64,000 nucleotides of DNA from Candidatus Poribacteria bacterium (lineage in GTDB: Bacteria > Poribacteria > WGA-4E > WGA-3G): positions 135,466-199,465 of the forward strand of contig JAPPFM010000056.1 in assembly GCA_028821605.1 (NCBI GenBank), written 5' to 3'. The position numbers were made by a program, and so were the translations under genes. Of the stretch, positions 8,455 to 64,000 are shown in pieces; the first letter of the stretch is position 1; every line of letters starts with the position of its first letter. Below the pieces are notes generated by a model that made no database searches, was not told the origin of the DNA, and saw only the letters and a list, made by a program, of their open reading frames with translations.

Positions 8455-9099
8455 GTGAAGGAAAAACGTATGTCATCTATTGCAGCCCGAACCTACCTAA
8501 CCCCAGAAGAATATATCGTTGCCGAACGCAAGGCGACACTCAAAAGCGAATATCTGAGCGGCGAGATCGTCGCAATGTCGGGGGCAAGTGATACACATAA
8601 TCTTATCACGATGAATACGTCAAATGCCCTTTACAATCAATTGGCAGACCGAGGATGCAGAGTCTACGCCAGCGATATGCGCGTCGGAATTAGCGCAGGA
8701 GTTTCCTACTTCTATCTGGATATTGCCGTTACTTGTGATAAACCCCGCTTCGAGGATGACGTTTTCGATACACGCATCAATCCACAGGTTATTATTGAAG
8801 TGCTTTCTGATTCAACCTTAGGCTATGATCAAGGCGAAAAATTCATACGCTATCGGCGACTGGAATCACTTCAAGAATACATCCTTATTTCACAAGATCA
8901 GGTTCAAGTCGATCACTATCTCCGTCAAGGCAAACAATGGGTGCTTACTGAATTCAGCGCACTTGAGGATGTGTTACGGCTTGTTTCAATTGGTGCAGAA
9001 CTCCCCTTGCATCAGGTTTACAGATTCATCGATCTGGAAACCGATGATGCCCTTCAAACCACCCATACCGTCTCAAAAAGGGACTCTATTTCATGCTGA
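8455..9099 (+). CDS. Uma2 family (DUF820) putative restriction-endonuclease-like protein
   Basis: Uma2 hallmarks: YLTPEEYIVAERKA...SEYLSGEIVAMSGASDTHN, CRVYASDMRV, YFYLDIAV, PQVIIEVLSDST. Confidence 0.75.
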   Translation: MKEKRMSSIAARTYLTPEEYIVAERKATLKSEYLSGEIVAMSGASDTHNLITMNTSNALYNQLADRGCRVYASDMRVGISAGVSYFYLDIAVTCDKPRFEDDVFDTRINPQVIIEVLSDSTLGYDQGEKFIRYRRLESLQEYILISQDQVQVDHYLRQGKQWVLTEFSALEDVLRLVSIGAELPLHQVYRFIDLETDDALQTTHTVSKRDSISC

Positions 9100-11141: not shown

Positions 11142-11248
11142 CCTTTGCAAAAAGATTGACTTATGCAATTTTTTTAGGTATACTTAACAGATACCCGAGT
11201 GACATACACTTGTTTTTTCTATCACTTTGTGGAAAAGGAGATGTTCTG

Positions 11249-11992
11249 ATGGAAACGCACCCCAATGCACGCCACATCCCTTACGCTCCCACAGAAACTG
11301 CCGACCTATACCCTGAATCGGATGGAAAACCTATGGCTGAGACGGATATGCACGCAGTGGCTATCATCGATTTACGGCAACGTTTTGACGGCTTCTTCGC
11401 GGATAACCCGGATACTTATGTATCGGGGACTCTCATGATGTATGATATAGAGGGCCCCAGCCGCACAGCCGTCTCACCCGATATCCTCGTCTCTTTCGGC
11501 ATAGGCAAGAAACTCCGCCGCACCTATAAGGTGTGGGAAGAGGGAAAGCCGCCAGACTTCGTGATGGAGTTTTCGAGCAAAGGAACGTTTCAAAATGACT
11601 TAGGGCATAAAAAGGCACATTACGCGTCAATGGGAATACCGGAGTATTTTCTCTGCGATATAGATAGACGCTATCTGCCCACGCCGCTGATGGGGTTTCG
11701 CCTCAAAGGTGAGACTTATGAGCGGATACCCGAGAACGTAGATGGTAGTATTCCTTCTGTGACGTTAGGCGTATCGTTCCATCTGTTGGATGAGGGGTTA
11801 GCCGTTTATGCGGAAGCGATGGAACACTGGCTGCAAACGCCTGCAGAGGCAGCAGAGGCAGCAGAGCAGCGTGCGGAACAAGAAGCCGCCGCACACGCGC
11901 GTGAAGCCGCCGCACGCGCCGAAGCGGAAGCGGAAGTCTCGCGCCTGCGCGAGGAGCTCGAGCATCTCAAAGCGCGCTTGTCAGATGACTAA
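11249..11992 (+). CDS. Uma2 family (DUF820) protein with C-terminal Ala/Glu-rich coiled-coil tail
   Basis: Starts METHPNARHIPYAPTETADLYPESDGKPMAETDMH with SD aaggag 7 nt upstream; the track ORF start at 11138 lacks an RBS. The C-terminal tail is AEAAEAAEQRAEQEAAAHAREAAARAEAEAEVSRLREELEHLKARL. Confidence 0.75.
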   Translation: METHPNARHIPYAPTETADLYPESDGKPMAETDMHAVAIIDLRQRFDGFFADNPDTYVSGTLMMYDIEGPSRTAVSPDILVSFGIGKKLRRTYKVWEEGKPPDFVMEFSSKGTFQNDLGHKKAHYASMGIPEYFLCDIDRRYLPTPLMGFRLKGETYERIPENVDGSIPSVTLGVSFHLLDEGLAVYAEAMEHWLQTPAEAAEAAEQRAEQEAAAHAREAAARAEAEAEVSRLREELEHLKARLSDD

Positions 11993-36777: not shown

Positions 36778-36778
36778 G

Positions 36779-36843
36779 GGTTATCGGTCATCGGTTAAAG
36801 AGGTAGTTGATTTTACAAAACCACCTCTTAACTGACAACTAAT
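36779..36843. repeat. short member of MITE-like palindromic element family (arms GTTATCGGTCATCGGTTAAAGAGGT / ACCTCTTAACTGACAACTAAT)
   Basis: Inverted arms around an 18-nt centre, between the transglutaminase stop and the next ATG. Confidence 0.55.
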
Positions 36844-36860
36844 TGGATAAAGACAAAGAA

Positions 36861-39626: not shown

Positions 39627-40508
39627 ATGAATTACAAGATCGTCCATAAAACTGAATACAGCTATACCCATCCCGTGAACCTCTGCTATAACGAGGCGCG
39701 TTTGAGTCCCCGGAGTTTTGCTCATCAGGATTGTAGCGAGAGTCAGTTCGTTGTGGACCCCGAACCTAAAGAGTGCCGAGAACGTCAGGATTTCTTTGGA
39801 AACACCGTTTACTATTTCACAATCCAGCAGCCTCATAATCAACTCACCGTTAGGGTTACGAGTCGTGTGAACGTCAAAGACAGAGAGATGCAACTGAATT
39901 TCGCCAAGCACCTCACTTGGGAGGAGGTGCGACAGCAGTTGCAAACGGATCAGAATTCGGGAATTCTGGAGATGCGGCAATATGTTCTTGACTCTCCAAT
40001 GGTTCCGATGATGCCCGAACTCCACGCTTATGCTGAAAAGTCGTTTACCAAAAGAAAACCGCTGCTCGAAGCTGTTAACGATTTGACCACTCGTCTCTAC
40101 ACCGATTTTACCTACGATCCGGGCTTCACGACAATCGCAACACCGTTGGCTGATGTCATAGAGCATCGTCGGGGTGTTTGTCAAGATTTTGCGCACCTCG
40201 GTATCGGGTGTCTACGTGCGTTGGGGCTTGCTGCGCGTTACGTCAGCGGCTATATTGAGACTGTCCCGCCACCGGATCAGGAGCCGTTAGCGGGTGCCGA
40301 TGCCTCCCATGCGTGGTTTTCTGTTTATCTCCCGCAGCTTGGCTGGGTAGATTTCGATCCGACAAATAACCAGATACCAGCAGATCAGCACATCACAATC
40401 GCATGGGGAAGAGACTATGCGGACGTAACGCCGCTGAAGGGTGTTGTCTTTGGGAGTGGCACACATGAATTATCTGTCTCGGTGGATTGTAAACGGGAAA
40501 ATTTTTAA
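39627..40508 (+). CDS. transglutaminase-family protein (Bact_transglu_N + core; Rv2569c-like)
   Basis: MNYKIVHKTEYSYTHPVNLCYNEARLSPRS, RGVCQDFAHLGIGCLRALGLAARYVSGY, HAW...DPTN. Confidence 0.8.
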   Translation: MNYKIVHKTEYSYTHPVNLCYNEARLSPRSFAHQDCSESQFVVDPEPKECRERQDFFGNTVYYFTIQQPHNQLTVRVTSRVNVKDREMQLNFAKHLTWEEVRQQLQTDQNSGILEMRQYVLDSPMVPMMPELHAYAEKSFTKRKPLLEAVNDLTTRLYTDFTYDPGFTTIATPLADVIEHRRGVCQDFAHLGIGCLRALGLAARYVSGYIETVPPPDQEPLAGADASHAWFSVYLPQLGWVDFDPTNNQIPADQHITIAWGRDYADVTPLKGVVFGSGTHELSVSVDCKRENF

Positions 40509-40521
40509 CCAGTCGCATGCT

Positions 40522-40640
40522 GGTTATCAGTTTTCAGTTCGGTTTTTCTGCGAAAAACCTTTCAGTTTTCAGAAAGAGACTTTGGAATTATCCAAAACCT
40601 CTTGTAACTGACGACTGACAGCTGATAACTGAAAACTATT
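40522..40640. repeat. MITE-like palindromic element copy (TIR GGTTATCAGTTTTCAGTTCGG ... CTGACGACTGACAGCTGATAACTGAAAACTATT)
   Basis: Inverted terminal arms. The right end is identical over about 30 nt to the copy at 44430-44459. Confidence 0.6.
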
Positions 40641-40682
40641 AAAGCGGATCTACGGAGAGGAACGCGAAAATCACCAAGACCC

Positions 40683-40711
40683 CTAACCGAACCGCAAGGA
40701 AAATTAAAATA
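40683..40711 (+). promoter_or_regulatory. copy 3 of conserved leader motif CTAACCGAACCGCAAGGAAAATTAAAATA
   Basis: Immediately 5' of the MazG-like gene. Confidence 0.45.
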
Positions 40712-40996
40712 ATGACAATTGAAGCGTTTCAGAAGCAAATTGAAGCTATCTATTACACGCGCGATGCTGAGCGCGGCGTACCACTAACCTTTACATGGTT
40801 CGTTGAAGAGGTCGGCGAATTGGCGAAGGAAATCCGCAAACAGCCGCAGGACATAGAACGGCTGCGAGAGGAATTCGCCGATGTTTTTGCATGGCTCGCC
40901 ACGTTAGCGAGCCTGCTCGGTATTTCCTTAGAAGATGCCGCGCAAATCTACGCAGCGGGCTGCCCGAAATGCAAAGATACGCCCTGCGACTGTTAA
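40712..40996 (+). CDS. MazG-like nucleotide pyrophosphohydrolase domain small protein with C-terminal CPKC...C.C motif
   Basis: EEVGELAKE ... EEFADVFAWL matches the MazG NTP-PPase helical core. 94 aa. Confidence 0.55.
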   Translation: MTIEAFQKQIEAIYYTRDAERGVPLTFTWFVEEVGELAKEIRKQPQDIERLREEFADVFAWLATLASLLGISLEDAAQIYAAGCPKCKDTPCDC

Positions 40997-41010
40997 CTCG
41001 CGTGGTGGAC

Positions 41011-42282
41011 TTAATTTCCATTCAAAAACCGATCGAAGTTACCGCCGAACAGGTTGTTGACATCCCGCTCAATCTCTGCCGAAGTCGGTGCCCACCCGAC
41101 ATCGAGAAGCGTTTGATATTTCTCTACCAAAACGTCCGCGATAATCTGACGCGAGTGTTTCCACTTATAGACAAGCTGATCCAAAATTCGTGCATCGGAA
41201 TGCTGTGGGATAACACTCAAACCGAGCAGTTCAATCCGTTCTCGTGTAATCTCCTCAATGACGCTCGGATTGTTCATAAACCACCAACATCCGAATATCA
41301 TCAAATTCTTGAATTTCCGCCCAATCACACACAATTCATGCTGGTTCTCGCGAGACAGCAGGGTAACGAGAAACTTATTGTCAGGATTTTCACGGAGTAG
41401 CGTTTCCAGACTCGTCAGATCCGCTTTCCCACTTCCGTCACCTGCCATCTGAAGTTGTGGGTTAACGGCGCGTTTCACGCCAATCATCAGCGCGAACGGA
41501 ACGTTAAATTCACGCGAAATCGGTAGTATGCAGTTGTCAAAGAGCCTTCCAAGGACACCATCCTCAGGGTATTGGAAATCCGGTGGGAGGGAGACCGCCA
41601 TATATTTCGGGTTCATTCGTTGAATCCATGTTTCCAAAAATCTGCGGACTTCCTTGTAAGTCTTCTCTGTTGATAGATCAGGATCAACATCATAGCCGAG
41701 ACCGAGAAGGTGATCATAACCGACTTCTTGGTAAGTGTTGATGAGGACATCCATCCGAAGTGCCGCTTCAAAGCGCGTGTCACCCGTGTCACCAGATTGC
41801 CAGACCGGTGCTTCTGCCGAATCAAAAGGATCGTTCGTCATCACCACTTTAGAGACTTTTGCGCGTTCAAAAACAGTGTCAATAAATGCCTCAACGGTGG
41901 TATCCGCAAAGTAGTCGCGGTAGTCCTGTAGATTGCGAGAACCGACATCTAACCCCAATTCATTTAAAGCCGTCACAACCCCTCGGCACGCCTCACTCAC
42001 CGGTGAGTTCTCAATAAAAAGCGTCTGCCAGATGAGATCTGCTTGTTCCGTCTTTGTCATCGCCCAGAACTGCTGATATGAGATATCCGATTTGCGGAAG
42101 ACTTCAGCGATAAGGTAGTGATAGGTAAGCAATTCATCTATACCCCATAACAACAAGTCACCGAAGGGCGGACTAAAGAGGTGTGTGTGAATATCTGTGA
42201 TGTTTTGCGTGTCAACAGCGTCAAAAACAGCGGTTTTCAACTGTTCTGTGGTAGCAAGTGTCTGTGTTTGATTCATGTTCAT
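41011..42282 (-). CDS. uxaC: glucuronate (uronate) isomerase family protein
   Basis: ITDIHTHLFSPPF aligns with UxaC PIFDYHCHLPP. The C-terminal FGCWWFMNN...DARILDQLVYKW...NLFGGNFDRF aligns with E. coli UxaC FGSGWWFND...DSRSFLSYTRHEYFRR...NICFNNARDYF. Confidence 0.6.
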   Translation of the reverse strand: MNMNQTQTLATTEQLKTAVFDAVDTQNITDIHTHLFSPPFGDLLLWGIDELLTYHYLIAEVFRKSDISYQQFWAMTKTEQADLIWQTLFIENSPVSEACRGVVTALNELGLDVGSRNLQDYRDYFADTTVEAFIDTVFERAKVSKVVMTNDPFDSAEAPVWQSGDTGDTRFEAALRMDVLINTYQEVGYDHLLGLGYDVDPDLSTEKTYKEVRRFLETWIQRMNPKYMAVSLPPDFQYPEDGVLGRLFDNCILPISREFNVPFALMIGVKRAVNPQLQMAGDGSGKADLTSLETLLRENPDNKFLVTLLSRENQHELCVIGRKFKNLMIFGCWWFMNNPSVIEEITRERIELLGLSVIPQHSDARILDQLVYKWKHSRQIIADVLVEKYQTLLDVGWAPTSAEIERDVNNLFGGNFDRFLNGN

Positions 42283-42385
42283 TTAACCCTCCAGATTCTG
42301 AAAAAAATAATTAAAAAAAACGGACGTTGACACCTTCCAACTCCCTTTGAACGAACTCGCCGCAGTCCTTCATTGAAACGTTGGA

Positions 42386-43387
42386 TCATAAAATAGAGTC
42401 AAACGGCGGATACTCCAATCCCCACTGTTCCCTAACAGTATCCATGGTCTTCATGATGGATAGAGACTCATCCAGCGGCATCACACGGCTTTCGAGTCTC
42501 CGTTCTCGGAGGCAGTTTATAACCTCAATCACTTGGTTTTCAAAGCCATTTGCGATGAACGGTATCTTGATGTGTACGGGATCTTTTCCAGTCCGAATGA
42601 GCGTCGCAGAAGTCGCTTGCCAGAATTCGGGAATATGTATTGATCCTTCGGTTCCGATGATGCGTGCTTCCTTTGAGGTTTCGGTTCTGATAGCACAGAA
42701 TAAATTGGCTATCTGTCCAGCGTCATAGCCTAACAGGATAGACGCTTGTTCGTCCACGTTGGTTGCTCCGATGTGTGCCAGACTGGTGATCTTAGATGGT
42801 GCACCGAATACCATATAGGCAAGCGCGACCGTATAAACGCCAACGTCCAAAAGCCCACTGCCCCCTAACTTTGGATTGAACAATCTACCTTCAAGGACTT
42901 CGGTACTCAGCGTTTTTCGAGATCCGTGATCCGCTGTCAGCAAACGCGGTTCGCCTATGGCACCCTCAGCCAACCATTCCCGAACTTTAACGATTATGGG
43001 AAGAAAGCGGGTCCACATGGCTTCCATCAGAAATTGCTGGCTTTCTCGAGCGCATGCTATCAGTTCCTCTGCCTGCCCTGCGTCCACAGTGAGAGGCTTT
43101 TCACATAAAACCGCTTTCCCTGCTTCCAGACACAGCATCGCACACTCCTTGTGAAAAGGGTGCGGCGTTGCCACATAGATAACGTCCACTTCAGGATCGT
43201 TCGCCAATTCGATGTAACTGCCGTGTCTATATGGAATGTCAAACGTGTCTGCAAATGTGTTGGCTCTCTGGGGATCGCGTGAACCGACAGCGACAATCTC
43301 AGTGTCAGGAACCGCTTTCAGTCCAGTGGCGAATTTATGTGCAATACCACCGGGACCGAGTATACCCCACCTGATCTTCTTCGGCAT
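42386..43387 (-). CDS. Gfo/Idh/MocA family oxidoreductase
   Basis: IRWGILGPGGIAHKF Rossmann motif; LCEKPL. Confidence 0.8.
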   Translation of the reverse strand: MPKKIRWGILGPGGIAHKFATGLKAVPDTEIVAVGSRDPQRANTFADTFDIPYRHGSYIELANDPEVDVIYVATPHPFHKECAMLCLEAGKAVLCEKPLTVDAGQAEELIACARESQQFLMEAMWTRFLPIIVKVREWLAEGAIGEPRLLTADHGSRKTLSTEVLEGRLFNPKLGGSGLLDVGVYTVALAYMVFGAPSKITSLAHIGATNVDEQASILLGYDAGQIANLFCAIRTETSKEARIIGTEGSIHIPEFWQATSATLIRTGKDPVHIKIPFIANGFENQVIEVINCLRERRLESRVMPLDESLSIMKTMDTVREQWGLEYPPFDSIL

Positions 43388-43402
43388 TCGGATCTCCTAT
43401 TT

Positions 43403-43834
43403 TTAAGGAGTAGGTTCTGATTCAATTTTGCTGGTAATAAAATTAATGATCTCTTCGGGGGAGTGTTTGCCGAATCGGATGTAAACACCGCGGAAGTTTT
43501 CGAGGCGTGTTGGGTGGGCGAACGGACTGAGCAGCACCCCGTTCGCGTCGGTGTAGAAACTGCGAAATGTTTCCCAAGGTCGTTCCAACTTGTAGAAACA
43601 ACAACTTGTAATGATAAGCTTATCCACTTCAAACTGGTGGTGAAACGGCAGAAAATATTTATAGAGCGACCCGATCAAAAAAATAGCCGACAGGACAGCG
43701 ACATAAATTAATTGGAAACCCAGATAGATGATAAGCAAGAGGAGTAGAAGAAAAAGCCCTAACAATACAGATTTGCGCCAATTCTCAACGAGTGGATGCA
43801 CTGTCCATGAAAGCGTTGTAGGCGCGTGCGACAT
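43403..43834 (-). CDS. hypothetical membrane protein (2 TM)
   Basis: Hydrophobic LLGLFLLLLLLIIYLGFQLIYVAVLSAIFLIGSLY. No recognisable family. Confidence 0.4.
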   Translation of the reverse strand: MSHAPTTLSWTVHPLVENWRKSVLLGLFLLLLLLIIYLGFQLIYVAVLSAIFLIGSLYKYFLPFHHQFEVDKLIITSCCFYKLERPWETFRSFYTDANGVLLSPFAHPTRLENFRGVYIRFGKHSPEEIINFITSKIESEPTP

Positions 43835-43876
43835 ATCGGAACTCTTTTTTATACGTGTTTGTGGACGCGAACGAGG

Positions 43877-44296
43877 CTATTCTGTGGTATCTGTGGCACC
43901 GCCATCAATCTCTGTCTTTGAGTCATCTTGGGTATCACTCCCACTGCCTTCATCTGTTGGGGTTTCGATAGTCTCTCCACCTGTAGTATCAGCAGGCTCG
44001 GTTGTGGCTTCCTGTGTCGTTTTCTGCTCAATCGGCGTGAGTTCACTGCCGGTATCTTCACCGTAGAAACGCATGAGGAACAGTGAAATAACCATAAACC
44101 CGATAGCGAGCCATGTCGTCAACTTACCCAGAAATGTCGCTGCACCGCGCCCTCCGAGGACAGACTGCATTTCCGCACCACCGAACGCGCTCGATGAAAG
44201 CCCTTCGCCTTTGCTGTCCTGCAAAAGAATAATCAGTGTCAGAACAACACAGATTGGCACGAAGAGAAACACTATAAAACCCATGATAATTTCCAT
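43877..44296 (-). CDS. secG: preprotein translocase subunit SecG with acidic Thr/Glu-rich C-terminal extension
   Basis: LLQDSKGEGLSSSAFGG...GGRGAATFLGKLTTWLAIGFMVISLFL matches SecG. Strong SD aggagga 8 nt upstream of the ATG. Lies downstream of tpiA, as is typical. Confidence 0.7.
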   Translation of the reverse strand: MEIIMGFIVFLFVPICVVLTLIILLQDSKGEGLSSSAFGGAEMQSVLGGRGAATFLGKLTTWLAIGFMVISLFLMRFYGEDTGSELTPIEQKTTQEATTEPADTTGGETIETPTDEGSGSDTQDDSKTEIDGGATDTTE

Positions 44297-44318
44297 CTGA
44301 TCATTTCCTCCTATGAAT

Positions 44319-44459
44319 GGTTATCAGTTACCAGTTATCGGTTGTCGGTTAAGAGGGTGTTTGGTAACAATTCCCCAACTTCGGGTACTCCAGAAGGAGG
44401 TAAATCGTTACAAATTCCCTCTTTAACTGATAACTGACGACTGACAACTGAAAACTATT
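44319..44459. repeat. MITE-like palindromic element copy (GGTTATCAGTTACCAGTTATCGGTTGTCGGTTAAGAGGG ... CCCTCTTTAACTGATAACTGACGACTGACAACTGAAAACTATT)
   Basis: Long inverted terminal repeats, inserted between tpiA and secG. The right arm overlaps the last 12 codons and the stop of tpiA. Confidence 0.65.
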
Positions 44460-45193
44460 TTCGCAAACGATTCCGCTTCAAGACTTGCACCGCCGACAAG
44501 GGCACCGTCCACATCAGGCTGCGCTATGAGTTCCGCCGCATTTTCCGGTTTAACACTACCACCGTATTGAATACATATCTGTGACGCGACTTCTGCTGAG
44601 TAAGCGTCTACCAGTAGCCCTCGAATGAAATTATGCACTTCCTGTGCTTGGTCGGGTGTCGCCGTTTTTCCAGTGCCGATTGCCCAAACCGGTTCGTAAG
44701 CAATGACACAAGACAACAGGTCGGCGGCGGATAAACCCGCAATACCTCCTGTGACGTGACTCTCAATCACTGCTTTCGTTTGATTGGCTTCTCGTTCTTC
44801 AAGCTGCTCTCCGACACAGATAATCGGCTTTAAGTCGTGTGCTAAGGCTGCTTTCGTCTTCTGATTAACGCTATCATTTGTCTCGCCGAAGTATTGCCGC
44901 CGCTCCGAGTGCCCGATAATGACGTAGTCACATCCGACATCTTTTAACAGTGGTGCTGAGACTTCACCGGTAAATGCACCGCTGTCTTCTGAATAAACAT
45001 CTTGGGCAGCGAGGCGAATGTTACTGTCGGCTATAGTGTCGCTAACCGCGGCAAGGGCGGTGAACGGGGGTGCTACGATGATTTCAACATCGGTGTCATC
45101 TGCAACTAACGCCTTTAACGCCGTTGTGAGCGCGACCGCCTCTGAGATCGTTTTGTTCAGTTTCCAATTCCCTGCAATGATCGGTATTCTCAT
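44423..45193 (-). CDS. tpiA: triose-phosphate isomerase
   Basis: IIAGNWKLN, IIGHSERR, AYEPVWAIGTG. Start placed at MRIPIIAGNWK with SD ggaaagga; the track ORF starts 4 codons earlier and overlaps the gap stop. The C-terminal 10 aa (FSCQSSVIS) are encoded by the MITE-like element. Confidence 0.9.
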   Translation of the reverse strand: MRIPIIAGNWKLNKTISEAVALTTALKALVADDTDVEIIVAPPFTALAAVSDTIADSNIRLAAQDVYSEDSGAFTGEVSAPLLKDVGCDYVIIGHSERRQYFGETNDSVNQKTKAALAHDLKPIICVGEQLEEREANQTKAVIESHVTGGIAGLSAADLLSCVIAYEPVWAIGTGKTATPDQAQEVHNFIRGLLVDAYSAEVASQICIQYGGSVKPENAAELIAQPDVDGALVGGASLEAESFAKIVFSCQSSVIS

Positions 45194-45204
45194 AGTCCTT
45201 TCCA

Positions 45205-46323
<1,119 letters not shown>

Positions 46324-46473
46324 TCAGAATACAGGCTTGCAAGCGATACTCCTTGATTTGCTATGATACAAGTCTTACGATTTACATCTTTTTTAATTAT
46401 ACTCTAAACTGCAGTAAATTGCAAACGCGTTGTTAACGGATTTGACCGCTCTGAGGCAATTTGACTTGACAAT

Positions 46474-47322
46474 TTGAATAATTTCAGATACCCTATTGGC
46501 ATGTCCACAGACACCAATAAAAAATCGTATCAACCTACCGAGAGTTTCCGTGCTATCCCTGTCGCAGTGCCCGAGAATCTCGGTAACATTCGAGTTATCC
46601 TCTTTGAACCACGTGAACCCGGAAATATTGGCTCTGTCGCCAGAGTCGTGAAAGGTATGGGGCTATCACAGCTCTATCTGGTAAATCCTGTTCCGTTCCA
46701 AGATGTCGATGCAGCGTGGTATATGGCACACGGTGCGAAGGATATTCTCGAAAATTGCCACGTCGTTCCTGAACTGAAAGACGCACTTGACGGCATCCAA
46801 TATCTGGTGGGGACGACACACCGTCGCCGTGATGTACGTCTACCGCAGCCTGTACCTGCCCGCGAGGCGGCGCAAACGATCGCTACAATTTCGCAGGATA
46901 AATCGGTCGCACTGCTTTTTGGACGCGAAGACTTTGGCTTGTCTACCGATCAAATGAGTCTCTGCCAGTTGACCGCAAGCGTACCAATGGCGACGAAAAA
47001 CCCATCTCTGAACTTAGCACAGGCAGTCCAAATCTTTGCCTATGAGGTCTTCGTCGCGAGTCTGGATGAGTATCCACCCTCCGAAATCGACCACGCCGAA
47101 GTGAACGCCTTGGAAGAGTTCTACGAGCGTGTGACTCGCCTGTTGGATAAGGTAGGCGTGACTCCATATAACCAAGACTGGGAGACGTATTTAAAGTCAT
47201 TGCGGCGCGTCTTCTCTCGTACCCCGTTGGAGGCAAGAGACATCGCTACACTGGACATAATTTTCTCTACGACCTATCGGCACATTGAACGTCTTGAGAA
47301 AAAATTAGCAGAGGATAAATAG
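46474..47322 (+). CDS. SpoU/TrmH-class RNA 2'-O-methyltransferase (TrmJ-like)
   Basis: IRVILFEPREPGNIGSVARVVKGMGLSQLYLVNP matches TrmJ motif 1. The start may be the internal Met at about 46501. Confidence 0.65.
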   Translation: MNNFRYPIGMSTDTNKKSYQPTESFRAIPVAVPENLGNIRVILFEPREPGNIGSVARVVKGMGLSQLYLVNPVPFQDVDAAWYMAHGAKDILENCHVVPELKDALDGIQYLVGTTHRRRDVRLPQPVPAREAAQTIATISQDKSVALLFGREDFGLSTDQMSLCQLTASVPMATKNPSLNLAQAVQIFAYEVFVASLDEYPPSEIDHAEVNALEEFYERVTRLLDKVGVTPYNQDWETYLKSLRRVFSRTPLEARDIATLDIIFSTTYRHIERLEKKLAEDK

Positions 47323-49333: not shown

Positions 49334-52300
49334 ATGCGATATATCAAACCCATCGTTTGGCTCATCTTTATCCTCTCTGGTGCCAGTGGACTCATTTATG
49401 AAGTCATCTGGATGCGGCAGCTCACGCTCATCTTCGGCAGCACCGTCTTCGCAACGAGTACCGTCCTGACCGCATTTATGGCAGGACTCGCACTCGGCAG
49501 CTACTACTTCGGTAGGAAGATCGACGAAAGCACACAGTCACCACTACGGATTTACGCGCTTTTGGAAGCGGGTATCGGTGCGTTCTGCCTTGTCTGGCCC
49601 CTCATTTTAGGGGCATTAAGTGCCATTTATGTTTTGGTTCATCGCAATATCACATCAGAGTTCTACACCCTCTCGCTCATCCGGTTCGTGCTAACGTTCG
49701 GGGTTCTGTTAATTCCCTCCACACTGATGGGTGGCACTCTACCGGTGCTAACCCGCTTTTTTGTGAAAAGGTTGGAGCAGCTCGGCACCAATATTGGGAT
49801 TCTGTATGCGTTGAACACATTCGGTGCCGTTATCGGAACTGTGGCAGCAGGATTTTTCCTAATTGAAGCGTTAGGTGTTCGATGGACGCTCGGTGTCGGT
49901 ATCGCTATTAATTTCGGCGTAGCAGCGGTTGCATTAGCGTTATCACAGAAGGTATCGGAAACAGAAGAGGTCAGCAGTCAGCAAAGCGATTTTCTTGCTG
50001 ATAGCCGACAGCCGACGGTTTCCGATAGCCATCCCTCCGACAACCGACAACCGACAACCGACAACTCTAAATTGGTATTATGGGCAATAGGCATCTCCGG
50101 GTTCTGTGCGTTGGCTTATGAAGTGTTGTGGACACGCATCATGGTCTTCTTCCTTGGGAGTACAACCTATGCGTTCGCGACGATGCTTGCTGCGTTCCTA
50201 TTCGGTATCGCGCTGGGGAGTATGGTATTTGCACGTTGGGTTGACCGGGTTAAACAACCTGTAGTAGTTTTCGGTATTATTCAACTCGGTATCGGACTTT
50301 TCGCGCTTCTCCTGATGCCCGCGTTTGAGGAGTTGTACGGCATGAGCCGTGCGTTCCAGTCCACCTTTGGCGGAAGTAGGTTCTGGGCATTTTTCTCCTG
50401 TTTCCTTGTGATGTGCCTTCCAACGTTTCTGATGGGCACGAGTTTTCCACTTGTGACGAAAATCTATACCGGCAGCGCACGTCAACTCGGTAGGAGCATT
50501 GGGAACGTCTATGCAGTCAACACAGTCGGGAGCATTTTAGGGGCGTTTTTTGCAGGATTCATCCTGATCCCACTTCTGGGCATCCGACCGAGCATCGTGC
50601 TAATGGTGGCTTTGAACACAGGCATCGGGTGCCTGCTTGTTTTAAGAGGTGAATGGCGGGCTGAAACCGGGAAATCGCTCCTACAAGGGGTAAGCATCGG
50701 GATGCCGATCCTCAACGCTGGATTGGCTGTTATCATGTTGCTCACCGTGAATCAACCGCTCTTTCTGAAAAGTGCCATTTTCAAAACGCAACGCCCCGGC
50801 GATACACTCGTTGATTACAACGAGGAGGTGGACGCGACCGTAACAACGTTAAAAGATGATGAAGGGGTCTATCGTCTCTATGTAGACACAAATCAGGCAG
50901 CGGATGCCTCGCGCTGGGATTCACCGTCGCATCGCGTCATCGCACATCTACCGTTGCTACTGCATCCACGTCCAAAACGTGCCCTCGTCGTCGGGTTCGG
51001 TATGGGGCTTACTTCGTATTCCATAACACAGCACGGTGTGCAAGTTGACGCAGTGGAACTGTCGAGCGGCGTGATTTCCGCTGCACAGAAGTATTTCACG
51101 CACGTCAACGGGAATGTGTTTGAAAACCCTCAATTTAACTATAGACTCAACGATGGGCGAAACCATATCCTGATGACGAAGACGAAATACGATATGATCT
51201 CGACGGGGATCATTCATCCGCTCGTCAGTGCGGGGAGTTCCAACATTTACACCGCCGATTTCTACCGTTTGTGTCGTCGGATTTTGAGCGAAGATGGGAT
51301 CATGTGCCAGTGGGTGCCATTGCATCGCTTACCAGAGGCGCACTATAAGATGATTGTGCGCACCTTCATTGAGGTGTTCCCGCACACAACGCTCTGGTAT
51401 AAGTACACACCGGATTTTGTGATTCTTATCGGCACACGTGAACCGCTGCGGATTGACTACAAAAACTTCATCGAACGCTCACAGATAGCGAGTATTCGAG
51501 AAGGGCTTGCTGCCGATGATCTGGATGGGATGTCGCTGCTCGATTCATTCATGATGGGACCTGAGAATGTACGTAAGTACGCAGACATTGGACCTATCCA
51601 CACAGACAACCGACCTCGATTGGAATTTTTCCGTGGGGCAGATTTGGTGGGTACAACAACACAGAACGTTAAAGGGATGGCAGAATACCGGGAACGGGTG
51701 CTGCCTTACCTCACCAACTACGGCACGACACTCGCAGAGAAACGGGACGCACGAGAGAAACTTGACACCTATTTTAGAGCCACACAGAGATTGATTCGTG
51801 GACAAATTGCTTATGCAAGCGCGCAGTATCAAAATGCCGCGGCACTCATGAACGAAGCGGTGGAACTCAATCCCGTTGACGAGACGATTCGCTATAACTT
51901 TGGGGTCGTCGCAGGTTTAATTCGCGAAGGTGAACAGGAAGAACTCCAACAGATTGAACGGCAGGTACAGCAGACGATGGCACAAAACCCTGATGACCTT
52001 CAGGGACACCTCCATTTGGCAACGTTGTATGAGATGCAAGGTGAACTCGGAAAGGCAGCAACGGAGTTAGAGGAATTACTCAGACGCGATCCGAAGAGAT
52101 TTGAGGTCTATCTGCTCTTAGGTCCGCTGTATGAACGTCAGGAACGCTACAAAGACGCGCTTCGCACCTATGAACGGCTTGAACGACTGGAGACAACTTT
52201 GCAATTGCCAGCACCCATTTTTGCAGCAATGGCGGGCCTCCATCTGCAATTGGAAAACATAACTGAAGCCGAAAAATATGGAAAGAAGGGCATCGCCGCG

Positions 52301-52495
52301 GATGTCAATTCGTGGCGGTCCTATTACGTTCTCGGAAACGTTTACGCCGCCATGAATCAGCTGGAGAAACAGATAGATGCCTACAACAACGCTTTGAAAG
52401 CGATTGATGAGGTCATTCGTGTCACCGCTGATTCGAGCGATCTATTGAGTGCCAGAGAACAGATCCAGAACGAACTTGAACAACTTAAAAGATAA
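49334..52495 (+). CDS. fused polytopic-membrane / spermidine-synthase-like (polyamine aminopropyltransferase fold) protein with C-terminal TPR repeats
   Basis: About 12 TM helices in two halves. Then ALVVGFGMGLTSYSITQHG...VDAVELSSGVI...NYRLNDGRNHI (SpeE-like). Then TPR-like repeats (YNFGVVAGL..., LATLYEMQGELGKA, YLLLGPLYERQERYKDA). Confidence 0.7.
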   Translation: MRYIKPIVWLIFILSGASGLIYEVIWMRQLTLIFGSTVFATSTVLTAFMAGLALGSYYFGRKIDESTQSPLRIYALLEAGIGAFCLVWPLILGALSAIYVLVHRNITSEFYTLSLIRFVLTFGVLLIPSTLMGGTLPVLTRFFVKRLEQLGTNIGILYALNTFGAVIGTVAAGFFLIEALGVRWTLGVGIAINFGVAAVALALSQKVSETEEVSSQQSDFLADSRQPTVSDSHPSDNRQPTTDNSKLVLWAIGISGFCALAYEVLWTRIMVFFLGSTTYAFATMLAAFLFGIALGSMVFARWVDRVKQPVVVFGIIQLGIGLFALLLMPAFEELYGMSRAFQSTFGGSRFWAFFSCFLVMCLPTFLMGTSFPLVTKIYTGSARQLGRSIGNVYAVNTVGSILGAFFAGFILIPLLGIRPSIVLMVALNTGIGCLLVLRGEWRAETGKSLLQGVSIGMPILNAGLAVIMLLTVNQPLFLKSAIFKTQRPGDTLVDYNEEVDATVTTLKDDEGVYRLYVDTNQAADASRWDSPSHRVIAHLPLLLHPRPKRALVVGFGMGLTSYSITQHGVQVDAVELSSGVISAAQKYFTHVNGNVFENPQFNYRLNDGRNHILMTKTKYDMISTGIIHPLVSAGSSNIYTADFYRLCRRILSEDGIMCQWVPLHRLPEAHYKMIVRTFIEVFPHTTLWYKYTPDFVILIGTREPLRIDYKNFIERSQIASIREGLAADDLDGMSLLDSFMMGPENVRKYADIGPIHTDNRPRLEFFRGADLVGTTTQNVKGMAEYRERVLPYLTNYGTTLAEKRDAREKLDTYFRATQRLIRGQIAYASAQYQNAAALMNEAVELNPVDETIRYNFGVVAGLIREGEQEELQQIERQVQQTMAQNPDDLQGHLHLATLYEMQGELGKAATELEELLRRDPKRFEVYLLLGPLYERQERYKDALRTYERLERLETTLQLPAPIFAAMAGLHLQLENITEAEKYGKKGIAADVNSWRSYYVLGNVYAAMNQLEKQIDAYNNALKAIDEVIRVTADSSDLLSAREQIQNELEQLKR

Positions 52496-54738: not shown

Positions 54739-54860
54739 AGTTATCGGTTTGCCTCGCAGTGAGAGTTATCAGTTTTCAGTCCGAGACGCTTTGTGGCAGT
54801 AACACAATTTGTACCTGCCACAAGAAGTTAACTGACAACCGATAACTGATGACTGATAAC
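54739..54860. repeat. MITE-like palindromic element copy with internal TTGTGGCAG...CTGCCACAA hairpin
   Basis: Arms GAGTTATCGGTTTGCC...GAGAGTTATCAGTTTTCAGTC and GTTAACTGACAACCGATAACTGATGACTGATAAC, between aspS and the Uma2 gene. Confidence 0.6.
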
Positions 54861-54883
54861 CAAAAAATAAAGGAGATAGCACG

Positions 54884-55591
54884 ATGAAAAGAAAAATAGG
54901 CACTGCCCCGACATTCGTCTATCCCGAATCAGACGGAGAACCGATGGCAGAAACTCCGAAACATCAGCAGGTGATGATAGATTGCATGGATATCCTACGA
55001 AACCATTTCCATGGGATCCGAGATGTGTATATCGGTGGGAACATGCTACTGTATTATGAAGAGGGGAATCCTCGGAAGAGCGTCTCCCCGGATGTCTTCA
55101 TGGTTCGTGGGCTGTCGAAAAAAGAACTCCGAACATATAAAACCTGGGAACAACCCGCCACCCTTGATTTTGTGTTAGAAGTTGCCAGCCCGAGTACGTA
55201 TACGAGAGACTTCAACGAGAAGATGGAGATATATGCCAAGATTCTGCGTGTCAAAGAGTATTATATCTATGACCCCTATCATGAAATTGAGCCCTATTTC
55301 GTTGGGTTCCGGCTTGTGGGTGAAACTTATGAGGAGATAGCATTCGTGAACGCACGACTCCCGTCTTCAGTGTTAGGTTTGGAGTTGGGTGAGCATGAGG
55401 GTTTGCTGCGTTTATATGACCCTGTTAAGTCTGCGTGGTTACTTACTTCTCAAGAACGCGTAGGAGAGGCGGAAACCCGCGTAGCACAAGAATCCCTGGC
55501 ACGACAGGAGGCGGAAACCCGTGTGCAACACGCCGAAGCCGAACTTGAAAAACTGCGTGCAGCACTCCAACGTTTAGAAACAACCAAATAG
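54884..55591 (+). CDS. Uma2 family (DUF820) protein with C-terminal coiled-coil tail
   Basis: TFVYPESDGEPMAETPKHQQ..., PDVFMV, coiled-coil EAETRVAQESLARQEAETRVQHAEAELEKLRAALQRL. This is the third Uma2 paralog in the window. Confidence 0.75.
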   Translation: MKRKIGTAPTFVYPESDGEPMAETPKHQQVMIDCMDILRNHFHGIRDVYIGGNMLLYYEEGNPRKSVSPDVFMVRGLSKKELRTYKTWEQPATLDFVLEVASPSTYTRDFNEKMEIYAKILRVKEYYIYDPYHEIEPYFVGFRLVGETYEEIAFVNARLPSSVLGLELGEHEGLLRLYDPVKSAWLLTSQERVGEAETRVAQESLARQEAETRVQHAEAELEKLRAALQRLETTK

Positions 55592-55595
55592 GAAA

Positions 55596-58500
55596 TTGAT
55601 GGTGAAAATCGGCAAATACCTCCCTATAGTGATCCTAATATGCGTCGGATTAGCGTTTGCAACAGCAGATGCCCAAGAAAACCTTGCACAACAGGTGTCC
55701 GCTATTTTTCAGCAAAACTGCTTGAATTGTCATGGACCCTCCGGTTCCTTTAAGGAAGCACTCCTGCTTGACCGCACCGCGCTTATTGATACGCAGGTCA
55801 TCATCCCAGGAAACCCAGAAAACTCAGAATTCTATAAACGACTCCTTGGACCGACTGAGAAGGGTCCGCAAATGCCGCTCAATCTACCACCGCTCTCACC
55901 AGAAGCCATTGAAACGATTGCCCGTTGGATTACCGCAGGCGCGCCAGATTGGGATGTGCAGCACGACATCAATTTCATAACCACAGATACAATACTCAAT
56001 ACCATCCGAAACCATCTAAAGTCGCTGGATCCGTTTGATCGTCCCTCCGCACGCTATTTTACAATGACGCATCTCTATAATGCCGGTGAAAGCCCTGAAA
56101 CTCTCAGCGACTATCGGATCGCGCTCTCTAAACTGATAAATAGCCTCTCGTGGAAGTTTGAGATCACGAATCCAACACCTATTGATGAAGCACAAACAAT
56201 CTTCCATATTGACCTACGGCGTTACGAATGGAATAATATCAGAACCGATGTGTGGACACAAATTGAGCAAGTATATCCGTACAACATTGTGTTTGATCCA
56301 GAAACACAAGCCGGTCTCCTTGAAAAACTGACACACCTGCAGACTGAAATGGGCAGCACAGTGCCGTTTGTCCATGTCGATTGGTTTCTTACGACCGCGT
56401 CGTTGCCACCACTCTATCACGACATTTTAGGTCTTCCACAAACAGACCGTGTGTTAGAGGCACAACTGGAGGTAAATGTTGCGAGCAATATCAGGAACGC
56501 CCCGGGGATAAATGTCTGGCGTGCGGGTTTCAACGATTCGGGTGTCTCCTCAAACAACCGCGTTGTGGAACGCCATACGTCTCGGTATGGTGCGTATTGG
56601 AAAAGTTACGACTTTGCTGGGAGCGTAGGTTCACAGAATATCTTTACGCACCCACTTGATTTCACACACGATGGTGGCGAAATTATCTTCAATCTCCCCA
56701 ACGGATTGCAGGCGTACTTGCTGGTTGACGTTAATGGTAACCGGCTGAACGACGCACCAATTGACATCGTTAGGAACCTTGCTGCGAGCAATCCGACAGT
56801 CCGGAACGGTCTCTCGTGTATTGGGTGCCATACGCAAGGCATGAAGAAGTTTGAAGATAGTGTGCGAGTGGCGATTGAACAAGATGACAACCCGCCGTAT
56901 AACAAAGAACAGGCACTACGCCTCTACGCTAAACAGTCAGTGCTTGATAATCTGGTTGCAAAAGATACACTAAGGTTTCAGCAGGCATTGGAAAAGATTG
57001 GCGGTCCGTTTGCGGATGATGCATCCAGACAACGCTTCTTCAAGCAACATGAAAATGAACCCATCCAACGGTTTCATGAATCGTTTCAATCACCCCTAAA
57101 TGCCTCGGACGCTGCTGCCGCTGTTGGATTGGAAACAGAAGCATTCCTCACACAGATCCGTGAGAAACAGAGTTTAAAAAACTTAGGACTACAAACGCTC
57201 ATAGATGTGAAGGGCACCGTGAAACGGGATGCATGGACATCTAACTTTGACGATGTAATTTCTGCGTTGAATACCCCTGATAGCATCCTTCCGCCAGTCG
57301 TGCAGCGTCCAGAACGCATTCCGGGTGCTGGTGTATACATTCCCGACCCGAACCTCCGCGCGGCAATTGCCGAAGCACTCGGCAAAGCACCTGGTGATCC
57401 GATTACGGTAGAAGATATGGCGATGTTGGCTGATCTGGACGCAAGGAATTATGATGAGCCGCGCAAGGAAAATATTAACAATTTAACGGGACTTGAGTTC
57501 GCAGTGAATCTCAAATTTCTACATATTGGTGGTAATTCAGTATCAGATTTATCGCCCCTTGCGGGGCTAATAAAACTAGATTTCTTAGATGTCCAGGATA
57601 ACTTAATATCAGATATATTGCCGCTTAAAGGATTGACTCGTCTAAAAGATTTAGTTCTTACTGATAACGTGATATCTGATTTTTCTCCCCTTATGGAGTT
57701 AACAACATTAAAAGAGGTATGGATTTCTGACAGCCCGGCATTTGACCTGTCACTACTTGGAAGATTGATTAACCTTGAGGGTGTGCATGCTTGGGATGTC
57801 CCCATAAAAGATCTATCCCCTCTTGCAGGATTGACAAAATTGAGATGGTTAGACTTTGGTCGTATTCCAATATCAGATCTTGCACCGTTAGCGAACCTAA
57901 CAAACCTGAGAAAACTGATATTTTACGATTGCGGCATAGAAGATATCTCGTCTCTGGCAGGATTGAAAGAGTTGAGATCTCTTATAATTCCTCACAACGC
58001 GATCTCAGATCTCTCGCCGTTGGCGGGGTTAACTCGTTTAGAAACTTTACATATCGTCAATAACCAAATATCAGATGTATCGCCCTTGGCAGGGTTAACC
58101 AACTTAGGCGAACTAAACCTCCGCAACAACTCAATAACAGATTTCTCACCTTTAGAGGCACTTTCCCAAAATACAAATATACTTACTGGTGAAGTGGCTA
58201 TACCCGATCTAAACCTCCGCGATGCAATTGCAGAGGCACTCGGTAAAGGTGATACTACAGTTGTTTCAATTACCGCTGAGGAAATGGCTACATTGACAAG
58301 TCTTGTTGTCAATGACAGAGGTATTCAAGATTTGATAGGACTTGAGTTTGCTATAAATTTGGAAAACCTATGGTTTGAACACAATCAGGTATCTGACCTA
58401 TCTTCTATCGCTAAATTAACCAAACTGCGCGAGTTACGGTTTGTAAGCAATCAGGTATCTGACCTATCCTCTATTGCTAAATTAACCAAACTGCGCGAGT

Positions 58501-61487: not shown

Positions 61488-61488
61488 T

Positions 61489-61580
61489 TCTCGGTTATCA
61501 GTTGTCAGTTAAGCCTTGTGGCAGTTGTACGTTACATGACTTCCACAACCCTCACTTTAACCTAAAACTGATAACTGAAA
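61489..61580. repeat. MITE-like palindromic element copy (CGGTTATCAGTTGTCAGTTAAG ... CTGATAACTGAAAG) with TTGTGGCAG...CCACAA core
   Basis: Lies between the stop of the giant gene and the transporter gene. Its arms match the family consensus. Confidence 0.6.
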
Positions 61581-61626
61581 GCCTGTATAGCAGGCGTGCC
61601 GACAACGAATAAAAGGGAGTCAAACT

Positions 61627-63239: not shown

Positions 63240-63335
63240 AATCTGGAAGCATGGAAGTCTCAGCCTTCCATCCCTTCCGTTGAAAAATCGAAAACTGGAA
63301 GTATGGAAGGTTGGAAAAATCTCCTTCCATCCTTC
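63240..63335. terminator. two GGAAG-based hairpins (atggaag-tctcagc-cttccat; atggaaggttggaaaaatctccttccat) downstream of the transporter gene
   Basis: Inverted repeats read directly from the sequence. The ORF 63234..63437 over them is not protein-like. Confidence 0.35.
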
Positions 63336-63364
63336 CTTATACCGTTAATCTGTTTCTGTAAACA

Positions 63365-64000
63365 TAATGAGCACTCGAACCGAACCGAACCCACAGCAAC
63401 CAGCACTCAACGGTGCAGCAATCCTCGCAATTATTAGTGTCGTGCTCGCCGCGGGGTGGATAGCATTCGCCTACTACAAAGGATCTTCCGCAGAGAGTAG
63501 CCGGATCCTGCTCTTACACCCGATAGTGCCGATACTGTTGATTGTGTTGCTTATCCGCGTTTACCGCTGGATCGACATCAGAAGTATCGTCATTCTGGAA
63601 ATACTGATGATTGCTCTGTGGATTTTTATACGTTTGTTAGGTGTGCTAACGCCTTTCATTTTGGGGTTCGGATTTGCTTATATCTTCAGGTTTCTCTGGA
63701 ATTCTTTTCCCTTCAAAGCGCGCTACCAACGCGGCATCGCAACTGTACTGATTGTGCTCCTCTGTGGCGGGCTGCTTTTCTACACAGGAAAACAGGTTAG
63801 CAAGCAAGCGAGCCAAATGGGAAGTGGATTGCTGAAGTTTTATCATGAAACTATGCTTCCGTATGCCATAGGTGAAACCTTTGAGGCAGTTGCTATCAGT
63901 AGAGGTGAGGTTACCTCACCCCTACATGAGGACGAGATTACAGAAAGAAACGAACAAGCGACAGAAACGTTCTATCTCGGGACGAATCATGGGGTTTATG
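63365..64000 (+). CDS. 3'-partial polytopic membrane protein (AI-2E/UPF0118-like transporter N-terminus)
   Basis: Frame-2 ORF open to the window end and absent from the ORF track: MSTRTEPNPQQPALNGAAILAIISVVLAAGWIAF...LLGVLTPFILGFGFAYIF... Confidence 0.4.

Follow-up and report, generated by a model that had tools for sequence, protein, structure and literature searches.

The final codons and stop of tpiA in a Candidatus Poribacteria genome lie within the arm of a palindromic heptamer-repeat element

Introduction

Repeats that supply genes with C-termini and stop codons are already known. Here we describe a well-resolved new instance in a housekeeping gene of the Poribacteria. In a 64-kb stretch of a sponge-associated Candidatus Poribacteria genome (contig JAPPFM010000056.1; hereafter the window, by which we mean the whole stretch analysed), the end of tpiA, the gene for triose-phosphate isomerase (TPI), is encoded by one arm of a palindromic element built from 7-nt units and situated between tpiA and secG.

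In their repeat units the arms come closest to the TAACTGA direct repeats described by MacGregor in 2015 from the Beggiatoaceae, Thiocystis, Cyanobacteria and Bacteroidetes (PMC4679880). Those repeats are mostly intergenic and adjoin gene ends, overlapping the ends of open reading frames (ORFs) in the Beggiatoaceae; the forward orientation carries stops in all frames, whereas the reverse orientation is open and encodes an LSVISYQ-like peptide (PMC4679880). The unit found here is likewise 7 nt long, is present in at least two tandem copies, and has a Tandem Repeats Finder (TRF) consensus of TAACTGA or AACTGAC; moreover, the SVIS of the tpiA tail is part of the LSVISYQ reverse reading. The differences concern arrangement. 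MacGregor's arrays are direct (with one inverted case) and usually stand a few nucleotides from a start codon that has no Shine-Dalgarno (SD) sequence, whereas here inverse arrays are paired as the arms of a hairpin around a core, the SD is kept, and the units are more degenerate (GTTNTCR). The taxa given in that survey do not include Poribacteria, Acidobacteriota or Planctomycetota (PMC4679880), yet such arrays occur in all three. Judged by its sequence, the element is best filed with the TAACTGA-type heptamer repeats, in a hairpin (inverse-pair) arrangement.

A second parallel comes from QMITE1 and QMITE2 of Coxiella burnetii, small palindromic repeats that overlap functional genes by 1-50 bp and confer C-terminal residues and/or a stop codon, with a strain-specific extension in enhC for which an RNase III or ribosome-stalling scenario involving QMITE2 has been proposed (PMC5896051). 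The tpiA element also supplies C-terminal residues and a stop. Unlike the QMITEs, which have defined terminal inverted repeats, direct repeats and family-wide identity, it has arms that are heptamer arrays of variable length, belongs with copies whose cores vary, and shows no clear target duplication.

Hairpin repeats found in intergenic space right after stop codons, inside operons, also include the REP/BIME and RAYT-mobilised REPIN elements (PMC3116915). REP sequences are palindromes of 20-40 nt that have a conserved head, are arranged as doublets and go with a RAYT gene. The present element differs from these: it has no GTAG/CGTC-type head, its arms are tandem heptamers, and no RAYT was found in the window ORFs scanned. 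Correia/NEMIS and ERIC elements are likewise intergenic hairpin repeats that follow stops, and all of these families, REP and REPIN included, are thought to affect mRNA stability, processing or the translation of neighbouring genes. The cyanobacterial STRR and SDR repeats, which Elhai et al. are said to have described in 2008, reportedly combine tandem intergenic heptamer arrays with very small nested palindromic modules. A similar nesting is seen here – a mini-hairpin, GGTTTTTCTGCGAAAAACC, and an AAGAG..CTCTT module recur inside heptamer arms at different loci – but phylum, unit and module sequences differ. A search of the literature found no description of these hairpin elements in the Poribacteria.

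Results

The tpiA gene (44423-45205, minus strand) encodes a protein of 260 amino acids, identified from the ORF list, from PF00121 relatives that are named Candidatus Poribacteria TPI, and from TPIs in the PDB, which match it at E=6e-80 with residues 5-251 aligned. Its product ends in ...EAESFAKIVFSCQSSVIS (also written ...GGASLEAESFAKIVFSCQSSVIS), that is, ...SFAKIV-FSCQSSVIS followed by the stop. Direct reading places the tail in nine codons, TTC AGT TGT CAG TCG TCA GTT ATC AGT (44426-44452, minus strand), and the working stop, TAA, at 44423-44425 of the same strand, at the junction of arm and inner stem (CAGTTAAAGAGGG). Both the tail, F252-S260, and the TAA thus fall within one arm of the palindromic element, as the first-pass annotation had claimed from the letters of the window alone. 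The GTTAA motif that closes this arm also closes the arm in two of the further copies described below, E0 (GGTTAAAGAGG) and E4 (CAGTTAAGCC).

The element at tpiA (E2) is a palindrome of ~144 nt (44316-44459) in which two arms of five 7-nt units each flank a core hairpin. In mRNA sense (minus strand) the 5′ arm reads AATAGTT TTCAGTT GTCAGTC GTCAGTT ATCAGTT (44424-44459), as defined by the TRF array, the inverted repeats and frame analysis; its units are of the TAACTGA type in reverse orientation (GTTNTCA). The 3′ arm, AACCGAC AACCGAT AACTGGT AACTGAT AACCATT (44316-44350, minus strand), is of the forward type (TGANAAC). Between them folding places a core (44351-44424, minus strand) with an inner stem, AAAGAGGG paired to CCCTCTT, around a nested hairpin, AATTTGTAACGATT ... 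AATTGTTACCAAA, whose loop contains CCUCCUUC. By TRF, 44425-44456 is an array of period 7 (4.6 copies, 84% matches, unit AACTGAC) with a partner in inverse orientation at 44319-44351, and an inverted repeat search pairs 44320-44343 with 44425-44448 (24 nt, 79% complementary) and, in the inner stem, 44351-44363 with 44411-44423. Terminal inverted repeats are thus present, with arms of 24-35 nt that are 79-93% complementary. The mRNA-sense strand of the element has a folding energy of -55.6 kcal/mol, where shuffles give -29.9 (z -6.5), and a 174-nt version reaches -59.3 kcal/mol (z -5.6). The element holds no terminator-like site and no U-tract, with CAUAGGAGGAAAUGA coming after the 3′ arm, and Rfam gave no match at E<=1 across 40000-46500.

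On its downstream side the element abuts the expression signals of secG (43877-44296, minus strand; 139 amino acids; ORF list, with PF03840 on orthologs). The 3′ arm ends at 44316, 3 nt before the secG SD, AGGAGG (44307-44312); from the end of this forward arm to the ATG at 44296 there are 19 nt, with the canonical AGGAGG between. The earlier statement that the same element sits directly upstream of the secG SD is therefore accurate. The core loop (44385-44398, UACCUCCUUCUGG in mRNA sense) holds CCUCCU, which is complementary to the secG SD 80 nt downstream, and this region also resembles the reverse complement of the ancestral SD region. The complementarity may be due to chance; in the predicted minimum-free-energy fold the secG SD is unpaired.

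Evidence that the tail is foreign to the enzyme came from comparison with the 120 closest protein clusters, all of them Poribacteria TPIs of 74-97% identity. Conservation runs through ...SFA[QKE]IV and then stops, exactly at the IV. Some 95 of the 120 clusters end K-x-x-(x)-stop after IV (KNAQ, KFDQ, KFE, KNTI and so on) and have no FSCQSSVIS tail; about 25 carry heptamer-derived tails; and FSCQSSVIS itself is confined to six close clusters of 89-97% identity, in one of which it reads FSCQSSVIR. In alignments with solved TPI structures, the match runs out at residues 250-252 of the query (...FAKIV). The end of homology at this point, together with the orthologs that have no tail, places the last nine residues outside the conserved enzyme. 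Every allele with the tail has the element. The tail allele recurs across several assemblies made independently, its clusters holding 13-143 member sequences, and is thus not an assembly artefact.

The ancestral arrangement is preserved in relatives that have no element (loci fetched for comparison are given L numbers). In L001 (GCA_022821965.1; 93% TPI identity) tpiA ends ...CAA ATC GTG CGA AAT GTT CAA TAG, and gaaggaggaaatgagcaa and the secG ATG follow, the spacer being 18 nt. The end in L008 (89% identity) is similar, with TAA as the stop and again an 18-nt spacer, while L013 (90%) reads ...GTG AAA AAC GCG CAA TAG gaggaaatcatcag ATG with a spacer of 14 nt. The tpiA-secG spacer in these three is therefore just 14-18 nt, and the SD of secG shares bases with the stop TAG in L001 and L013. 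A relic of this junction survives in the window. Directly after the 3′ arm it reads CA TAG GAGGAAATGATCAG ATG, and the block TAGGAGGAAATGATCAGATG is identical at 19 of 20 positions to TAGGAGGAAATCATCAGATG of L013; comparison with L013 (CAA TAG GAGGAAATCATCAG ATG) and L001 (CAA TAG GAAGGAGGAAATGAGCAA ATG), in both of which the TAG is a real stop, identifies the ancestral stop as the TAG at 44311-44313, overlapping the SD at 44307-44312 (relic 44307-44313, minus strand). Because this TAG-plus-SD block lies downstream of the element, the element sits upstream of the ancestral stop, inside what was formerly coding sequence. Alignment of the junctions gives an insertion of 120-140 nt, with 7-17 nt of target removed relative to the empty sites. 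The element thus replaced the last four codons of tpiA, the ancestral end being ...IV-K/R-N-A/V-Q-TAG. The earlier proposal of an insertion at the 3′ end of tpiA that replaced the native terminus is thus borne out by the empty sites and by the relic.

The left boundary of the replaced tract can be placed to within a few codons. By homology the first non-ancestral residue is F252, which stands in place of the conserved K; the A-K-I-V of the window matches the conserved A-[QKE]-I-V of orthologs. The first-pass annotation had ascribed the last 12 codons to the element (while listing 13 residues, AKIVFSCQSSVIS); the repeat origin stands, but only the last nine codons and the stop are non-ancestral by homology. 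The heptamer periodicity extends back into the I and V codons, and the K/E-I-V codons read AAA or GAA, ATA, GTT in all window-type alleles against CAA ATC GTG in all element-free alleles. The replaced tract may on this account begin as early as ~44459, and the number of element-derived codons, nine by homology, could by nucleotide differences be as high as 12; a left boundary between 44452 and 44459 is the conservative statement.

Similar junctions, of the form AAATAG/TT, are seen at other copies: AAATAG/TTCTCGG at E4, ATTAG/TTATCAG in L045 and AATTAG/TTTTTAG in L121. The AAATAG of the E4 site is also found in L121, where that site has no element, and is therefore ancestral. From these junctions we infer a preference for landing sites with TAG-like or heptamer-like microhomology; at tpiA, AAATCGTG would have been overwritten to AAATAGTT with I-V still encoded. 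Two other constructions of the left end were considered. The idea that E1, E2 and E4 all end in an AATAGTT unit is called into question by the ancestral AAATAG at the E4 site of L121, and the motif may reflect target preference rather than the end of the element. A left junction made by an 18-nt deletion plus a frameshift at an element that originally followed the stop is less parsimonious, for A-K-I-V would have to be recreated by chance.

Among close relatives the junction forms an allelic series. L006 carries an element identical to the window copy, L005 has one heptamer fewer in the 3′ arm, and in L007 (89% TPI identity) the core is shorter by 41 nt. L003 and L004 (91%) keep both junctions with the interior collapsed to GTTTTCAGT joined to AACTGGTAACTGGTAACTGATAACC, giving the tail FSNW before the stop and a 38-nt spacer. 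These variants fit the changes expected of tandem-unit slippage and long-palindrome instability. Further lineages have different tails at this junction, also heptamer-derived: L010 (...IVK-RVISS, from GTTATAA units, with the right end of the hairpin, TAACCATTC, in common with the window), L009 (...IVK-MAVSSQ, from GCAGTYA units) and L011 (...KMAVSSRLRS, a collapsed derivative of the L009 type).

The element is not alone. At least four further such hairpins occur in the window, all of them 0-13 nt after a stop codon and all on the plus strand: E0 (36778-36842; fold -19.5 kcal/mol, z -2.4), 1 nt after the TAG stop of an ORF of 1107 amino acids; E1 (40521-40643; -45.2 kcal/mol, z -6.0), 13 nt after the stop of a transglutaminase-like ORF; E3 (54740-54865; -44.1 kcal/mol, z -5.9), 10 nt after an aspS-like stop and upstream of a Uma2 gene; and E4 (61483-61582; -31.7 kcal/mol, z -3.9), which abuts the TAG stop of an LRR/cohesin/dockerin ORF of 1963 amino acids. 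Heptamer arrays of two or more units number 10 in the window against 0.15 expected from mononucleotide shuffles; one of those reported by TRF, at 54829-54860, has TAACTGA as its unit. What the copies have in common is limited to the heptamer arms and a short stem inside them, whereas cores vary: an AAGAG../..CTCTT inner stem is common to E0 (GTTAAAGAGG..CCTCTTAAC), E1 and E2, and a CTTGTGGCAG core to E3 and E4.

Copies are polymorphic for presence and absence at orthologous sites (by eye, no heptamer array was seen at the E4-orthologous site of L121), and orthologous copies differ between strains by 7- or 14-nt steps, internal indels, nested insertions and whole-core replacement. A nested palindromic module, TTTAACCATCAACTCG...CGAGTTGATGGTTAAA, is present in the E0 3′ arm of two closely related strains (L005, 20335-20400; L006, 11020-11075) and absent from the window (36830-36845); by eye it is ~60 nt long. 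A mini-hairpin, GGTTTT(T)CTGCGAAAA(A)CC, which calls to mind the very small dispersed repeats of Nostoc, lies within heptamer arms in the window (40540-40562) and in L045 (~590-610 and 3760-3780). In L045, another Poribacteria genome, a copy of E1 type (87% identical over 116 nt) stands between unrelated genes at a non-orthologous locus, from which it follows that at least the E1 type is dispersed.

Beyond the Poribacteria, a wider scan of one genome per species with four GTTNTCA units followed by GTT recovered at least 120 loci from Cyanobacteria, Acidobacteriota, Planctomycetota, Bacteroidota, Poribacteria, Parabeggiatoa and others, with an inverse partner array no more than 250 nt away in 33 of 120 among the matches listed. 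Loci of Acidobacteriota and Planctomycetota (L016, L023, L056, L059, L087 and others) again show a stop, then a reverse array, a short core, a forward array and a start.

Within the window, tpiA is the middle gene of a gapA-tpiA-secG cluster whose first gene, gapA, lies at 45205-46209 (minus strand); a scan for terminators and promoters gave a good promoter-like site upstream of it (46396-46425). The tpiA ATG and the last base of gapA overlap at 45205. The tpiA ORF has two in-frame Met codons (MERTMRIP), of which the second, residue 5, matches relatives of 256 amino acids; many relatives are annotated four residues shorter, and the second Met may be the true start.

Other repeats were noted in passing. 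Heptamer arrays stand in frame at 49975-50067 within the ORF at 49334-52495 (an MFS / spermidine-synthase / TPR protein): CCGACAA four times plus GTCAGCAGTCAGCAA, encoding ...VSSQQS...SDNRQPTTDNS, with the forward units in a CCGA variant that avoids TGA and TAA stops. Comparison of the window with L005 shows the encoded loop to be hypervariable, although on either side of it the two proteins are 100% identical. Downstream of a sodium:dicarboxylate symporter gene (63240-63380) is a different palindromic repeat with GGAAGG/CCTTCC motifs, and the orthologous site in the Poribacteria metagenome-assembled genome (MAG) PCPOR4 (L121, 7470-7600) holds an E1-like heptamer hairpin instead. There are three genes of the Uma2 family (PF05685, putative restriction endonuclease), at 8455-9099, 11138-11992 and 54884-55591, one of them directly downstream of E3. 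The family is greatly expanded in cyanobacteria, which share heptamer repeats; a link between the two is pure speculation. Long in-frame tandem repeats also occur in surface-type proteins (966-1481, 1655-1967, 3083-3328 and 58375-59048): an LDL-receptor-B/NHL/dockerin protein has a 261-nt duplication together with 162-nt dockerin-like repeats, a minus-strand coiled-coil ORF has repeats of 21/33/87 nt, and the 1963-residue LRR/cohesin/dockerin protein has LRR repeats of 66 nt.

Discussion

We consider it highly probable that a repeat element was inserted or copied into the last codons of tpiA, and that tail and stop are both repeat-derived. In one Candidatus Poribacteria sub-lineage the element entered the last four codons of the gene. 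Frame analysis shows why such an event need do little damage. Ideal reverse units, (GTTATCA)n, are open in three frames (VISYQLS...), and ideal forward units, (TGATAAC)n, have stops in all (stop-stop-LITDN), which is the behaviour that MacGregor (2015) described for TAACTGA repeats (PMC4679880). Since reverse units have no stop in any frame, translation runs through the 5′ arm as FSCQSSVIS. In the frame actually used, counted from the GCG (Ala) at 44462-44464, the stop comes after 13 codons, as the TAA in CAGTTAAAG, and the other two frames meet stops after 2 and 37 codons. The rest of the element therefore closes all three frames within 37 codons, so that a gene entered from the 5′ side gains only a short tail, which makes gene ends permissive targets. 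At tpiA the conserved TIM-barrel sequence up to ...SFAKIV is left untouched, and the change to the enzyme is probably tolerated and near-neutral for fitness.

The consequences for expression are harder to judge. The tpiA stop, ancestrally directly on the secG SD, now lies within a hairpin stem 126 nt upstream of the secG start, and the secG SD is retained. The ancestral overlap of stop and SD, and any translational coupling that arose from it, would thereby be broken, with secG presumably initiating independently from its own SD. The hairpin could make the gapA-tpiA message upstream of it more stable, or be a place where the transcript is processed. Its most likely role, if it has one, would be in mRNA stability, in processing or in partial decoupling of the two genes. 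REP elements near stop codons have been reported to lower translation of the upstream gene.

Several points weigh against this account of tpiA, or against parts of it. Neither the fetched loci nor the JGI metagenomes yielded a second instance of the core of the tpiA copy – a metagenome scan with AGAGRGAATTTGTAACGATTT gave one unrelated AT-rich match, L134 – and mobility of the tpiA copy as a unit is thus putative. The left boundary admits two readings, as the K-I-V codons may be element-derived or may be ancestral and altered by three substitutions. The tetranucleotide ATAG stands at both junctions and could be a 4-nt target duplication, or chance. A neighbour-joining tree of TPI, too poorly resolved to count gain events, interleaves alleles that bear the element and tail with empty ones; there may have been several gains, and recombination between strains is possible. 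The antisense strand of the tpiA copy folds better than the mRNA strand (-67.9 against -55.6 kcal/mol), arm mismatches being A-C in the mRNA and G-U in the antisense strand, which is no sign of selection for structure in mRNA sense. Finally, every functional consequence proposed for the hairpin is read from the sequence.

A selected regulatory role is one alternative. The hairpin, or its forward arm just before secG, would be bound or processed, for example by RNase III or by a post-transcriptional regulator, and would have been fixed for tuning the expression of gapA-tpiA relative to secG, with the tail as a by-product. According to a proposal of MacGregor (2015), a translational regulator binds the forward TAACTGA repeats that precede start codons (PMC4679880), the same stop-to-start order is met in Planctomycetota and Acidobacteriota, and heptamer elements occupy the tpiA-secG junction in several Poribacteria lineages. 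Against this, close relatives do well without the element, the element is rapidly remodelled or collapsed between strains, a normal secG SD is kept, and no consistent bias between mRNA and antisense folding was found across the copies. The element-free relatives and the fast remodelling, together with the better antisense fold and the lack of strand bias, disfavour strong selection on the structure, and we regard the regulatory explanation as possible but doubtful.

The annotation had also called the element 'MITE-like', after miniature inverted-repeat transposable elements (MITEs). A classical MITE would be a non-autonomous insertion sequence derivative whose terminal inverted repeats are recognised by a transposase acting in trans, which mobilises it. 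The long inverted arms accord with this, as do the presence/absence polymorphism at orthologous sites, the 87%-identical copy at a non-orthologous locus, and the ATAG at both tpiA junctions. Other features do not. At tpiA 7-17 nt of target were removed rather than simply duplicated, and no consistent target-site duplication was found at the other copies; copies are alike only in heptamer arms and short inner stem; arm length varies by whole heptamers; and no second site of the E2 core came up in the fetched loci or the JGI metagenomes. Nor was a transposase or RAYT domain (PF01797-type) detected in the 30 window ORFs scanned with Pfam, and the Pfam annotation of L005 and L006 orthologs of most remaining window ORFs includes neither. 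The element is unlikely to be a classical MITE, and 'MITE-like' is only loosely apt.

Read-through into an element that already lay between the genes, after mutation of the native tpiA stop, has a precedent in Coxiella enhC, where an indel decides whether the ORF reads into QMITE2 (PMC5896051), and the other window copies do sit just after stop codons. Element-free alleles, however, have no intergenic room for such an element (14-18 nt, with the TAG overlapping the SD in L001 and L013), and the window has its orthologous TAG-plus-SD block after the element, not before it. The position of this block excludes read-through, an explanation we think very improbable overall. That the tail is an ancestral or functionally selected extension of TPI with an incidental likeness to the repeat is least credible of all: although it is kept in several clusters of 89-97% identity, over 90 orthologous clusters do not have it, it falls outside the homology to every solved TPI, its codons keep the register of a 7-nt DNA repeat whose pairing partner is the downstream arm, and the collapsed allele shortens it to FSNW. 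The empty-site alleles refute this reading outright.

Returning to insertion or copying of a repeat element, how might such elements reach new sites? The arms gain and lose whole 7-nt units and the interiors delete, in keeping with slippage and palindrome instability. For arrival at new loci we favour recombination or template switching through heptamer microhomology over a dedicated transposase. A more tentative idea, to which we assign a low probability, is that paired inverse TAACTGA-type arrays around small cores constitute a distinct class of hairpin, spread across phyla (Poribacteria, Acidobacteriota, Planctomycetota and others) and sited from stop to start, that grows and shrinks by 7-nt units, homes without a transposase to stop-like or heptamer-like microhomology, and routinely rewrites C-termini. 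If this were so, the tpiA tail and the KMAVSSQ and KRVISS tails would be instances of routine rewriting, and the design of the element, with one arm open and the rest closed in every frame, would make its entry into gene ends harmless.

The tpiA locus provides a fully resolved example of a small repeat that rewrote the end of an essential and highly conserved housekeeping enzyme, apparently without harm. Natural populations offer the whole range of its alleles, whether empty, full, shortened or collapsed. For annotation it means that C-terminal differences among Poribacteria proteins, and odd 'extensions' in MAGs, can be repeat-derived. The conversion of an overlapped tpiA-stop/secG-SD junction into one separated by a hairpin is, in addition, a natural experiment on translational coupling. 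The event at tpiA is of an ordinary kind, well documented here; a survey of its own might be worthwhile for the hairpin arrangement seen more widely across phyla. The range of TAACTGA-type repeats extends to the Poribacteria and, as hairpin pairs, to the Acidobacteriota and Planctomycetota, and this wider range bears on what these repeats do and on how they spread.

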